A DNA stretch of 64,000 bases from Pocillopora damicornis (Eukaryota), in contig NW_020845998.1 in NCBI RefSeq assembly GCF_003704095.1, positions 248,001 to 312,000 on the forward strand, read 5' to 3'. A program made the position numbers and the translations under genes. Under the pieces are notes generated by a model. That model was given only the letters and a program-made list of their open reading frames with translations. It was not told the DNA's origin and made no database searches. Of this stretch, positions 53,488-62,464 are shown piece by piece; position 1 is the stretch's first letter, and every line of letters begins with the position of its first letter.

Positions 53488-54927
53488 CTAAATGGAGGGC
53501 GGATGAGGTGGGCTGTATTTCAATTTGGCAATAATCGCATCTAGGGTGTGGTTGGGCGGAGGCAGAACGCATTGCCATCTTTGAGTCACCTTGGCTTTAG
53601 AAGAGGGGGGTAATTCTTGTACCAGATCCAGTAAAGTAGGATCCGGCTCACAAAGGTTTATACGTTTCAAACAACGACAGTTGTCGACCAGTGCGTTCAT
53701 TAGCACAGCGTCCGCGACGGAATCCATCGAGGCAAAGTTTATAAGCGACACAGCCTCGAGGAATTCACAATATCTTATAAGGTTTGGAAAGAACATGCTC
53801 TCGGAAATACTAGCTTTGCCGAAAGCGCCGTATTCCAGAACCTCTAGTCTAGGAAGCATCCTTAAAACTTCTGCCATGGCCGATGGATTGATGCTTGAAG
53901 ATTGATACACCCCTAAGCATTTCAGTTTAGGGCAGGCTCGGGATAAAATGTATAAAGCCTCAGGCGTCAATGTAAGACTCCATCTTACATCTAACATTTC
54001 TAAGTTTGTTCCTGTTTCTTGTCGCGCAATCTGTAACAAAACTGCGTCTGTTACCGCTCGGCCGACGCCACAGTACGATAAGTTGAGATACCTCAAAGTC
54101 TTCACGTTTGTAACCAGGCTAATGAGGCCTATCTGTGTTATGTTAGAGCACGCTGAAATATCTAATTCCTCCACAGGGACGAACTTCCAGTCGCTGATCA
54201 CGAAACAATCGTCACGCACCGGCGTGTAACGAAGAAGCAGCGTAGTCAATCGAGAACACGATCGGAAAAGCGTGCAAAATGTTCGCCCATAGACATATTT
54301 GCATCCGTTTAAACAAAATGATTCCAGTAAAGGGCAGCACTCGGCCACTTTACCGATAACTTCGTCTGTAATTGTGTCGCAGTTCGTACAGTCAAGTATA
54401 ACCAATCTTTGCATTTTGGTGAACAAAGACGGGACCGCGCCCTTCGAGGAATTGTTTCCAATGCCTAGGTATTTCACCTCACAAAAGTGCCTTATTATTC
54501 GCCCTAAGAAGGCAAAGTCTCCTTTAATCGGCCTCAACTCCACCAATTCCAGTTGAGAAGGAAATTCGTAGGTGACTTCGGTGTATTTCGGAGGTGGACT
54601 TGGCGGTCGTAATTTTGATCCTCGACTGAATATTAAATATTTCAAACTTTTACATTTCCTGTTCAGCTCGCTGAGAAGCTCAAGCGAAATTTTACAGCCA
54701 CCCAAGTGAAGAATAGAGAGAGAATGAGAAAATCTTGTCCTTATAAGCATGTGCAAGGTATCTTCGTCGAGTTTTGCAGCTTGTCGTTTCAAGTTAACAG
54801 CCTTCCAAAGAGAATGATCGTACGCTAGCCGGCGCCAATAACTGCAGACTCTAGCAGCTTTCCCCAGATCCCCAACAGGAAGAAAAGAAAAAACTTTTAA
54901 AATGACTATTTCTGGCAAAAAATCCAT
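53488..54927 (-). CDS. F-box/leucine-rich repeat protein (FBXL-type SCF substrate receptor), intronless, 479 aa
   Basis: N-terminal F-box (LPEIVILKVFSFLPVGDLGKAARVCSYWRRLAYDHSLWKAVNL) followed by cysteine-containing LRRs (e.g. LVILDCTNCDTITD, VEELDISACSNIT, LRYLNLSYCG). In-frame TAG upstream of the ATG. Confidence 0.93.
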   Translation of the reverse strand: MDFLPEIVILKVFSFLPVGDLGKAARVCSYWRRLAYDHSLWKAVNLKRQAAKLDEDTLHMLIRTRFSHSLSILHLGGCKISLELLSELNRKCKSLKYLIFSRGSKLRPPSPPPKYTEVTYEFPSQLELVELRPIKGDFAFLGRIIRHFCEVKYLGIGNNSSKGAVPSLFTKMQRLVILDCTNCDTITDEVIGKVAECCPLLESFCLNGCKYVYGRTFCTLFRSCSRLTTLLLRYTPVRDDCFVISDWKFVPVEELDISACSNITQIGLISLVTNVKTLRYLNLSYCGVGRAVTDAVLLQIARQETGTNLEMLDVRWSLTLTPEALYILSRACPKLKCLGVYQSSSINPSAMAEVLRMLPRLEVLEYGAFGKASISESMFFPNLIRYCEFLEAVSLINFASMDSVADAVLMNALVDNCRCLKRINLCEPDPTLLDLVQELPPSSKAKVTQRWQCVLPPPNHTLDAIIAKLKYSPPHPPSI

Positions 54928-57225: not shown

Positions 57226-59449
57226 ATGGATAAAAAGCACAGAGACTTGTTGAGAAAGAACAGATTGTTACTAGTAGAAGATTTAGAAGCTACCCAGCTA
57301 TCCAATTTTTTATATCAGGAGGGAGGTATATCGGAAAACGATATGCAAACCATAAAGGCAAAACCCACGAGACAAGCTCAAGCGGAAAAGCTTCTGGACA
57401 TTCTTCCTCGTCGTGGACCGAAAGTTTTTGATGTGTTTTGCCGAGCTCTTGAGCAAACTGACGGCCAAGGCCACCTATTGGATATGTTGAAGACGAATGG
57501 ATCACCTACCTCTGGTAAATTATGAACGTTCGTTGTGACTTGTTATATTATGACTTAAAGTATGTAGTAACTTTCAGTCTCTCTTTTGATTAGAGTTAGA
57601 AGCTCTCTTAATAAGGCTAAGCTTATTGATTCTTACTAATCGTTGTAATAAGTATGTAACTCTCTGGCTCTGATTTTCATCCGCAAGATATAAAATTATT
57701 GTAAAAAGATGGTAAGGAACTTCCCTTGGCCCAAAATATTTAACACAACTCTAATTTGTAAGTTTCCGTGATACGTTTTAAACGTTTTGAGCACCATTGT
57801 ACAAGTTACGATTGTGTTTTCCTTGTATGATATTTATGGACCTCAGACCACTGATTAGGTTCTTTTTCTTTTTACCAGAAAGGTTTTCAAAGTAATGGTT
57901 GATAAGAGTTTCATTATAACCCTTTAACTTGCAAGATCTAATTGTTAATTCACCCCTTCAGCTGCTACACATAACCTTGTAAATTACTTGTGAGAATTTG
58001 GTTTTAACCCAAGATGACTTCTACCTGATAAGTCTGCATATTCTTATTACCTGTTTATGGGATAATGTATGGATATATATCATAGGGAGAAGAAACACTC
58101 AAAAAGCTCTCGACTGTTGGTCAAATTATCTACCATAGGAACTGTAAAGAGAAAATTAGGAAGACTTAACATACTGATGTTGGGGTATAGCAGTGTTCTC
58201 CCTTATTTTAAGCATGACAGGTTAAAATAAATTTTCAAACCAGTAAAGCAATCCTTTTAATTGTTAAATTTTCAAGAATTCCAAGCAATTTTAATGCTAA
58301 TAGGAGGTACTACAGGCAGTAAATATTACCAGTTACTGCCTGAAAAGGAGAACACTGGTATAGAGGGTTAATTTTTTTATTTAGAGGTAATAATGTTAGG
58401 GAAAATTAGATTCTAGTCACTCCTAGGGGTTATAGGGTTAAAGAGAAATTTTTACTTTCTTTTTTTTTTTTTATTAACTTAAAGGAGCAGTGTCAAGCTC
58501 AATCCAGGATGGAAACAGAGGCAGCATCTCACTGGAGCGGAGTGACGGCACCAGACAAATTTATTCAGAGCAAGTGGCTTTGAAATCCAATACCTCTACT
58601 TCATCACAAGTCAAGAAGAATGCTCTGCGTGGTTCTGATGATGATGACTTGGTTTACTCCATGAAGTGTGAACCTCATGGCTTATGTTTGATTGTTAACA
58701 ATGTAGATTTTGAGTATCTTAGTAGAAGAGGTGGTTCTGATGTGGATGCAAAAAAACTTGATGAATTGTTTACTAAGCTTCAGTACAAGGTCAAAATGGT
58801 CAGGAATCAGACTTCAAAACAGCTCAAAGAAACTCTGACCCAGTTTGCAAGATTGAATGACCATGGAATGGCAGATTCTGTTGTTGTCTGTCTCCTTAGT
58901 CATGGGTTGGAAGGGCAAATTTTTGGTGTTGATGGAGTGCTTGTGTCCATTCCAGATCTTCTGGCATTGTTCAATGGTTATGCAGCAAAAGATCTCATTG
59001 GGAAACCAAAGATGTTTTTTATCCAAGCTTGTCGTGGAAGTGATTTTGATCAAGGAGTAGAGGTAACTGATGGTGGGTATATGTCTGCCAATGAAGTTCC
59101 AGTTGCAGAGGCAAGAGCTACTGTTGTTCAGGCACACTTACCTGGAGTCAAACCTGATACAGTTGTACCAGAGCCAGAACCAGAATCACTCCCTGCTGAA
59201 GCTGACATGTTAGTTGCTTACTCCACTGTTCCAGGATATGTTTCCTGGAACAATTTGGCTAAAGGTTCCTGGTTTGTCCAAGCTATAGCTGATGTTTTTA
59301 GTGATTATGCCCATACTGAAGATGTTGTCAGTATGTTGATCAGAGTAAATAATAAAGTTGCCAGGGAGTTTGAGTCATTTAATAGAAAGAAACAGATGCC
59401 AGCACCTGTAATCATGTTGACTAAAAAAGTTTTCTTTTTCCCTTCATAG
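57226..59449 (+). CDS. CARD-containing initiator-type caspase (caspase-2/9-like architecture), 2 exons, ~417 aa
   Basis: Exon 1 57226-57514 encodes a CARD (MDKKHRDLLRKNRLLLVEDL...LLDILPRRGPKVFDVFCRAL), donor G|gtaaat. Exon 2 58485-59449 follows a poly-T acceptor (alternative in-phase AG gives 58491). Catalytic LSHG and QACRG are present, plus linker site VEVTD-G and p10 motifs ADMLVAYSTVPGY, GSWF and KQMP. Confidence 0.95.
57917..58441. mobile_element. Nested family-2 MITE-like fragments in the caspase intron
   Basis: TAACCCTTTAAC..CAAGATCTAATTGTTAATTC start, internal CATACTGATGTTGGGG, and terminal TAGTCACTCCTAGGGGTTATAGGGTTAA. Confidence 0.6.
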
Positions 59450-59683
59450 TAGGTGCGAAAGCAGAACACATTGTAGTACTCTGATGTAAAGAAAGGAAAA
59501 TAATGTTCTATTTTTTTAGAATTGTCTAAAAAAAAAAAACAGAAAGAAACGAATCCCAGCACCTGTAATCATGTTGACTAAAGAAGTTTTCTTTTTCCCT
59601 TCTTAGTAGGTATGAAAGTAGAACATGTATTAGTACTCTGATGATGAAGAGAAAGGAAAAAAATGACCCATTTTTTTAGGAAT
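59384..59683 (+). repeat. Tandem duplication (~157-bp period) of the caspase 3' end
   Basis: AGAAAGAAAC..CCAGCACCTGTAATCATGTTGACTAAA.AAGTTTTCTTTTTCCCTTC.TAGTAGGT starts at ~59384 and again at ~59541. Confidence 0.9.
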
Positions 59684-61084: not shown

Positions 61085-61261
61085 AGGGCCTTGTGAGTTA
61101 AGGCCAGGGCCATACTACACCATCCACCGGTTAGAGATTTATTCAAGCTTATTCAGCGGTTAAGCATTATTCAACCTTCGAACACGACCTTCTATGTCAT
61201 TAATAGAAAGAGATAAAATGTGTCTTCATATATAAAGTAGTCACTGAAAGAAAGCATCGGC

Positions 61262-62464
61262 ATGGCGGAAGCTGGAATTGATCGTCTATCAGGAAATTCA
61301 ATCGCTAGCCTCAATGAAGCTCTTCAAAAGCATTTAGATGGAGGCGGTTTTCAAGTTATGGACGATTTATCAAAACAATTATTTCCATCCGTGTTTGGTG
61401 CGATTAAGAATTGTTTGTATAAGCCGTTACGGAAACATCCCCTCTACAGGGAAGTCGAATTCGTCTGGACTGGAAGCACAGCGGAAGGGGTAAATATTCC
61501 TAATTTCGATAGGCATGGGGATGGAAAGCCTCATCTTGAATTCGAAATGGATATACTCTGTATGTTCCGAGACGTTAAAGTCGGAAGATCAAGGGACAGT
61601 CCTGCCATACTTATGAAGCAAGAAGACACAAGCGAGGGATACTTTGTCGTGTATCTGAATGATGAAGATTACAGAAGAAACTGGGCCCCCTTTGCTATTG
61701 GCCCAAGCGATCCGAAGAGAAGGGGCGAATTGTACCTTAATCCATTGTTGATTGTAGGCGACTTGTACAAGCAAATTGAACATATTTTCGCTCAAATTCC
61801 TTTACTAAATGAGAGATTCCAATTGGAATTCAATCCACCAGCAGTAACTTTATCCATGTCTTTAGACTTCCAAAGCGTTACAATCAATTGTGATTTGGTT
61901 GTTGCATTCGAGTTGCTAAATGACTGTCTTCCAGTTGAGTATCCATCGTGGATTACAGTACATGGAAAGCCAAACTGGCTCAGTGAGGAGGCTTTTGTTA
62001 AAGCACAACAACAGCATCTTTATCTTGTTGGAAAGTGTTCACCAAATGGACAATCAAAGGTAGAATGGAGACTGTCTTTCAGCGTTGTAGAACTTTTTCT
62101 GTTACAGGAATTAGCATCACAATGCCCTGCTGCTATAACATGTTACAGAGTCTTTAAACAAATAAGATTCTGGCATCTAAAATGCCCTCATATTCTTCAT
62201 TCATATCACTTGAAAATGGTGTTTCTTCAAGCGTGCCACAAGTACCCTCCAAAATTATGGACAGACAGTAATTTGGCAGCCAACCTTCTTGGACTTTTGG
62301 ATGACTTGTTTTATTGCCTGGCCACAAAGTCTTTGCCAAGTTACTTTATTCCACGATATAACCTGATTGAGGGAATTCATCCTGAATTTCTGTTCACCTT
62401 ACTGGATAAATTAAATGATGTGAGAAAAGATCCCTTTAAGAACATTATCAATTTAAAAAGATGA
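61262..62464 (+). CDS. Mab-21/cGAS-like receptor (cGLR) nucleotidyltransferase, intronless, 400 aa
   Basis: NTase signature TGSTAEG...EFEMDIL, third acidic residue in NCDLVVA, and Mab-21 C-terminal motifs WRLSFS..E, CYRVFK, SYHLKMVFL, W..SNL..LL.LLDDL..CL and LPSYFIPRYNL. Confidence 0.93.
   Translation: MAEAGIDRLSGNSIASLNEALQKHLDGGGFQVMDDLSKQLFPSVFGAIKNCLYKPLRKHPLYREVEFVWTGSTAEGVNIPNFDRHGDGKPHLEFEMDILCMFRDVKVGRSRDSPAILMKQEDTSEGYFVVYLNDEDYRRNWAPFAIGPSDPKRRGELYLNPLLIVGDLYKQIEHIFAQIPLLNERFQLEFNPPAVTLSMSLDFQSVTINCDLVVAFELLNDCLPVEYPSWITVHGKPNWLSEEAFVKAQQQHLYLVGKCSPNGQSKVEWRLSFSVVELFLLQELASQCPAAITCYRVFKQIRFWHLKCPHILHSYHLKMVFLQACHKYPPKLWTDSNLAANLLGLLDDLFYCLATKSLPSYFIPRYNLIEGIHPEFLFTLLDKLNDVRKDPFKNIINLKR

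Follow-up and report, generated by a model that had tools for sequence, protein, structure and literature searches.

The arginine at position 341 of caspase-1 (Arg207 of caspase-3) is treated as indispensable for the recognition of aspartate by caspases. The S1 pocket is made up of Arg179, Gln283, and Arg341, and Arg341 additionally binds a glutamate at P3 (PMC12550167). A preliminary description of a 64,000-nucleotide stretch of the Pocillopora damicornis genome (contig NW_020845998.1, positions 248,001 to 312,000; hereafter the window) pointed to a caspase gene with asparagine in place of this arginine. Either an altered specificity or a low-activity, cFLIP-like regulator processed in trans was proposed. 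The locus raises the question of whether this substitution is real, how widely it is shared, and what kind of enzyme is left. Pocket positions are given below in caspase-1 numbering.

Results

The gene lies on the forward strand of the window, and its spliced product, a CARD-caspase of 417 residues, is exactly the database protein P0003 (P. damicornis pdam_00010896). Exon 1 (57226–57514) carries the start codon and the CARD domain (Pfam, 63.7 bits). Exon 2 (58485–59449) encodes the interdomain linker and the entire Peptidase_C14 domain (Pfam, 211 bits) and runs through the stop codon. The intron between them (57515–58484) begins with GT, ends with AG, and holds high-copy repeats. The junction was supported by RNA-library contigs, rather than raw reads, of the runs X17 and X19, which exit at 57514 and re-enter at 58485; X20 had no coverage of the gene. 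At least half of the exon words were present in 20 of the 24 runs listed (nine studies). A CARD prodomain and a single caspase domain were assigned by Pfam. The structure model had a mean pLDDT of 90.2, was confident outside the linker, and gave a TM score of about 0.8 against caspase-3/7. The Peptidase_C14 domain and fold, together with the His-Cys dyad in SHG and QACxG, place the protein in the caspase family (Peptidase C14A).

The remaining parts of the active site had been described as retained, and all of them were found. They are the equivalent of Arg179 (Arg178, 58727–58729), the catalytic His236 (58901–58903), Gln277, which is Gln283, through the catalytic Cys279 (59024–59032, Gln at 59024 and Cys at 59030), and the linker Asp (59069). 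The latter belongs to the first linker site, EVTD/G (59060–59074; the slash marks the predicted cleavage), which is kept in orthologs. With Arg179 and Gln283 present and Arg341 absent, the protein is not classed as a canonical Asp-specific caspase.

The codon AAC at 59249–59251 is in frame in the open exon and gives Asn352 in YSTVPGYVSW-N-NLAKGSWF, with SW-N-N where caspases show SW-R-N. The codon position given earlier was right; the feature start, 59215, is off frame, which has no effect on the claim. The equation of this site with caspase-1 Arg341 and caspase-3 Arg207 also holds, since in the alignment Asn352 falls on the arginine of the SWR motif in zebrafish caspase-3, human caspase-3, and CED-3. 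It aligns as well with Arg233 of caspase-7 in the peptide RSPGRGSWF (PMC9239266).

A sequencing error had been considered unlikely, and the RNA data agreed. Contig 29 of the run X7 spans 59167–59524 with no alternative letter at the codon (a contig, not raw reads). The runs X17 and X19 also cover the AAC codon, with no difference there among the rows listed. The recommended check in orthologs found Asn in 126 distinct database proteins, including those of P. verrucosa and Stylophora pistillata. Given the independent contigs, these 126 proteins, and the spliced RNA contigs, there is practically no chance that the codon reflects a sequencing error or a decaying pseudogene. A pseudogene is also contradicted by a dN/dS of about 0.1 and by the lack of a close Arg-bearing paralog. 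None was present among the best 21 candidates scored in the same genome, where the next match is 35% identical, and such a paralog as the working copy was thus rejected. A mutation private to Pocillopora was ruled out because the tree and the count of 263 proteins given below show that the loss is clade-wide.

Some features of the surroundings were recorded. Over short high-copy repeats in the intron (57917–58360), contig depth is very high in each of the four RNA runs. Reading of exon 1 through into the intron (57226–57525) gives a CARD-only frame of 99 residues; CARD-only records of 98 residues exist in relatives (P0306, P0310, and P0319) and may be gene-caller artefacts. At 59140, X7 also contains a variant that lacks 12 bases of the linker and stays in frame (depth 55 of 157), and similarly short linkers occur in P0019-type proteins. 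The segment 59546–59685 is a partial tandem copy, 84% identical to the 3' end of the gene (59389–59525), and the Asn352 site lies outside the copy. A single-exon Mab-21 nucleotidyltransferase gene of the cGAS-like receptor type (61241–62464, forward strand) lies 1.8 kb downstream of the caspase, and a single-exon F-box/LRR gene (53488–54927, reverse strand) is divergently oriented to it. Neither neighbour was found at any of the nine ortholog loci examined, within flanks of up to 5 kb each.

The near-invariance of Arg341, stated in the preliminary description, was borne out by the numbers. The residue is present in 164 of 174 caspase domains (150 cluster representatives at 50% identity). Two of the ten exceptions belong to the present orthogroup, three are in domains devoid of the catalytic Cys, and five are scattered. 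Of the 80 metagenome loci, those that cover the site all have the arginine except for five coral orthologs and the loci L043 and L102. The other caspases of the P. damicornis genome that bear His and Cys retain it.

The site was covered in 263 of 270 distinct ingroup proteins, among which Pocillopora and Porites are heavily oversampled. It is Ser in 132, Asn in 126, and Arg in 5, so 258 of the 263 bear Ser or Asn. All 15 named stony coral species checked have lost the arginine. Asn is found in P. damicornis, P. verrucosa, and Stylophora pistillata, and Ser in Orbicella faveolata, Desmophyllum pertusum, Fimbriaphyllia ancora, three Porites, two Montipora, and four Acropora species. Relatives among the anemones, sponges, and echinoderms retain the arginine. 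It is present in all 26 anthozoan outgroup proteins and in all 49 other relatives compared (proteins shorter than 240 residues excluded).

In a maximum-likelihood tree of 105 rows, the orthogroup formed one clade of 72 rows (SH-aLRT 100). This was a quick tree with a midpoint root and SH-aLRT values in place of a bootstrap. Sixteen near-identical Pocillopora entries were dropped by choice, and further rows, including an intended mollusc outgroup, were lost to a motif filter. P0057 falls inside the clade near its boundary and P0060, P0062, and P0065 fall outside; these rows bear on the place of the corallimorpharians. Five state changes were counted. Arg changed to Ser on the stem, with the direction taken from the outgroups; Asn replaced Ser in Pocilloporidae and separately in a single Acropora-like row; and two reversions to Arg are nested within the clade. 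The codons are AGT or AGC in four coral loci (L024–L027), AAC in the window, and AGA, AGG, or CGT in outgroup loci. The sequences fit a two-step route, from Arg to Ser on the coral stem and then from Ser to Asn in Pocilloporidae, and the codons are compatible with single steps. The preliminary description was right that this near-invariant arginine of the S1 pocket has gone from an otherwise intact caspase; it missed that the change is old and shared across the stony corals and that Ser is the usual state, with Asn coming later.

The five nested Arg-bearing proteins are P0027, P0054, and P0152–P0154. Those that show the region all have an altered Gly in RxG[ST]D (to Ser or Ala), four have Pro at position 343, and P0151 and P0153 appear to be one protein that was split. 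Their Arg was weighed as a sign that the site varies freely; given the accompanying changes, they may be decaying duplicates, or else natural revertants.

The rest of the enzyme is strongly constrained. Across 180 distinct ingroup domains, zero changes were found at His, Cys, Gln283, Arg179, Ser339, Trp340, Ser347, and the first linker Asp, and four at the Arg341 site. The tree of these domains has a length of 4.36 changes per site (267 were examined, 9 incomplete ones were dropped, and the remainder were duplicates). However, 99 of the 222 core positions do not vary at all within the clade, and the invariance of the catalytic residues is therefore only modest evidence of catalysis. The core dN/dS is 0.07–0.08 between the window and L024–L027, where dS is 1.1–1.2 and near saturation, and 0.13–0.14 among L024–L027 (dS 0.28). 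The gene is intact, spliced, and under purifying selection.

Several other changes accompany the loss. The residue before Arg179, Arg177 in the window protein (58724–58726), is basic (Arg or Lys) in all 114 ingroup proteins and in none of the 26 anthozoan outgroup proteins; in caspases generally, 18 of 166 domains have a basic residue there. Within the clade only Arg-Lys exchanges occur at this position, while neighbouring positions change 13–16 times. Position 343 (Leu354, 59255–59257), which is S, Q, or T in anthozoan outgroups, is hydrophobic in the coral clade and is Leu in 178 of 180 domains. The first linker site is kept as [DE]-[VM]-T-D followed by G, S, or N, with the P1 Asp in 180 of 180 domains, an acidic P4 in 180 of 180, and the P2 Thr in 175 of 180.

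The intact first site had been noticed before; the loss of the second linker site alongside Arg341 had not. This second site, which immediately precedes the small subunit, is D/[GSAC] in all 27 anthozoan proteins and in 10 of 10 sponge- or echinoderm-grade relatives. In one of the 27, P0067, the linker is shortened, and the site counted there may be the first one. In the ingroup the second site occurs in 0 of 123 Ser proteins, 0 of 5 Arg proteins, and 2 of 126 Asn proteins, nine proteins lacking the alignment anchor being omitted. Its P3 residue is Glu in 32 of 37 outgroup proteins, often as [DE]-E-x-D. At the same place, 112 of 123 Ser-bearing coral proteins have D-x-x-E, which aligns without gaps with the D-E-P-D/S of the nearest outgroups. 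The Glu of this motif is kept in 91 of 93 Ser-bearing rows, with two changes, the fewest of 16 linker positions. Pocillopora reads K-P-D-T there (59150–59161 in the window), and Stylophora has no acidic residue.

All of these co-changes sit on one stem branch, which is 0.27 changes per site long and carries about 19 diagnostic columns. Therefore, none of them is statistically tied to the loss of Arg341, and their coupling with it is suggestive rather than proven.

Discussion

The reading that we favour, with a probability of about 45%, is that the coral protein is an initiator caspase of attenuated activity, still directed at acidic residues and probably processed by a different caspase. Through its CARD it would be brought to a signalling platform and dimerised there. 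The loss of one guanidinium would weaken the binding of P1 Asp and abolish the preference for P3 Glu. The enzyme would then no longer cut the ancestral [DE]-E-x-D second site efficiently, and this site would decay. Cleavage of the first site would fall mainly to a second caspase, with a DxxDase of the OfCasp3a/PaCasp7a type as the obvious candidate, and the processed enzyme would act only on a few platform-bound substrates.

Since Arg179 and Gln283 are kept, P1 is expected to be still acidic, and since Arg341 reads P3 Glu, its loss would match the disappearance of the P3-Glu second site. Furthermore, OfCasp3a and PaCasp7a are DxxDases that are cleaved at DVTD (PMC7586219). DVTD is identical from P4 to P1 to the first linker site of Porites, and the P. 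damicornis genome contains a likely ortholog of these enzymes with the RYP motif (L008/L010). A first site of this kind with a likely DxxDase ortholog in the same genome favours processing largely in trans. Observations on the linker count against the favoured reading, however: the first site of Pocillopora has Glu at P4, a poorer match to a DxxDase, and the strong retention of the D-x-x-E Glu in Ser-bearing corals is unexplained by simple decay. For the proposals made earlier, the sequences are compatible with low activity and processing in trans. An altered specificity is possible; a switch away from an acidic P1 is unlikely, given the retained Arg179, Gln283, and first linker Asp.

Other readings were weighed against the same data. 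The protein might be a nearly dead regulator that sits on CARD platforms as a partner or decoy, in the manner of cFLIP-L; cut in trans, it would tune a second caspase and leave substrates uncut itself. The second site and Arg341 disappeared together while a first site that others could cut was kept, and corals do use inactive caspase domains, such as those of caspase-X (PMC4715348) and the His-less L020 and L021. However, the caspase-X pseudo-domains have no His and Cys (PMC4715348), unlike the present protein, in which these residues and those of the groove show zero changes in 180 domains, and we consider such a regulator rather unlikely. It is also improbable that the fixed basic residue beside Arg179 restores the lost charge and the enzyme works as a normal Asp-ase. 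The complete separation of ingroup and anthozoan outgroup at this position, its low background in other caspases, and its restriction to Arg-Lys exchange amid changing neighbours would suit such a compensation. Nevertheless, its fixation is one event, and the same Arg accompanies an intact Arg341 in 22% of 49 other caspases, so it may serve another role; human caspase-1 itself has Arg178.

Usual caspase sites prefer a small residue (G, S, or A) at P1'. This bears on a shifted specificity, in which a wider S1 pocket would take Glu, or phosphoserine, at P1 and the move of the second site from D-E-x-D to D-x-x-E would have preserved it as a self-cleavage site. The prevalence of D-x-x-E, its gap-free alignment with the outgroup site, and a Glu that is the most conserved of the linker positions speak for it, and there are caspases in which Glu and phosphoserine at P1 are tolerated (PMC12550167). 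However, the residue after this Glu is T, K, or R rather than a small one, the motif is lost in Pocillopora and Stylophora, including the window protein, and the conserved Glu may be structural. We regard this shift as about as improbable as the compensated Asp-ase.

As a selective cause, compatible with the other readings, the loss might have been an escape from bacterial OspC-family effectors, which ADP-riboxanate Arg341. CopC modifies Arg233 of caspase-7, Arg413 of caspase-8, and Arg355 of caspase-9, and an Arg to Ala change blocks the modification (PMC9239266). The OspC/CopC family is also reported in Vibrio (PMC9239266, PMC11598138). On the other hand, the other His- and Cys-bearing caspases of P. 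damicornis keep their arginine, the site is nearly static rather than cycling as in an arms race, and an escape would be of benefit only to an enzyme that remains active. The coral protein cannot be ADP-riboxanated at this site; a causal link to the loss is speculative and, in our estimate, very unlikely. The combined proposal of a rebuilt pocket, an active Arg341-less caspase that would accept P1 Glu, with a second site shifted along with it and immunity to ADP-riboxanating effectors, is quite improbable. As for the attenuation in the favoured reading, no measured activity of an Arg341 point mutant was found in the literature searched, and the available passages of PMC3953413, PMC13587975, and PMC13475620 had no bearing on it.

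The window protein forms one clade with OfCasp2 of Orbicella (XP_020630531.1, P0123), which has Ser at the site, and is thus a member of the OfCasp2/PaCasp2 orthogroup (SH-aLRT 100, quick tree, no bootstrap), with CARD and caspase domain. A CARD exon also lies upstream in four ortholog loci (L025, L026, L027, and L032). OfCasp2 and PaCasp2 were named and placed in a tree by Shrestha et al. (2020, PMC7586219), where they appear without expression or assay in the text parts available. The missing arginine is unmentioned in those parts and in the supplement text, as distinct from the alignment picture of Fig. S1. The CARD-caspases of the anemones Nematostella, Actinia, and Actinostola have the same domain order and are 54–59% identical in the catalytic domain. 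However, they differ in keeping Arg341 and the second linker site, in a longer L1 loop, and in the absence of a basic residue ahead of Arg179.

The closest parallel is offered by mouse caspase-12, likewise a full-length CARD-caspase changed at position 341 (Arg341Lys; PMC11121540). A review takes this change to predict loss of normal function and also mentions autoprocessing of rat caspase-12 (PMC11121540). In mouse caspase-12 the replacement is a conservative Lys in one lineage of the inflammatory clade, whereas in corals Ser or Asn spans a whole order.

The prodomain of cFLIP is a tandem DED. The coral protein retains a CARD with an invariant His and Cys, so a cFLIP-type pseudo-caspase was rejected and the earlier label cFLIP-like does not stand as a family assignment. 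What it may share with cFLIP-L and the pseudo-domain of coral caspase-X is a caspase fold with an impaired active site and a possible regulatory role; those domains are inactive, and that of caspase-X has neither His nor Cys. Caspase-X itself, with inactive and active domains in tandem (PMC4715348), was rejected because one caspase domain is present here. Metacaspases and paracaspases, which cut after a basic P1, have an acidic S1 pocket in place of Arg179 and Gln283. They were rejected because both residues are kept.

The loss of Arg341 is real and conserved, and it has apparently gone unremarked. The substitution was unreported in the literature searched, which lay outside subscription papers, and an accession search led only to Shrestha 2020. 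The main text of Moya 2016 (PMC4715348), supplements aside, gave no match for arginine or R341 in the parts available, and the available parts of PMC10959488, PMC11251625, and PMC10361584 contained nothing on an Arg341 substitution. An order-wide lineage that lacks Arg341 while the other active-site residues are fixed is a natural experiment on the S1 pocket, and the anemone orthologs are ready controls. The loss also bears on cell death in corals. The gene is annotated as 'caspase-3-like' or 'caspase-2', and pathway models treat it as an ordinary initiator. In work on bleaching and disease, what is counted as an active caspase may be a protein with weak activity or a regulatory role.

Two further observations concern other caspase domains. 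L020 and L021, with L003 and L004, are His-less domains beside intact ones in the P. damicornis genome, as in coral caspase-X. Arg341 is also replaced in six unrelated domains, namely L043 (Leu), L102 (Lys), P0460 (Ile), P0453 (Leu), P0369 (Gln), and P0385 (Lys), several of which retain the catalytic Cys.
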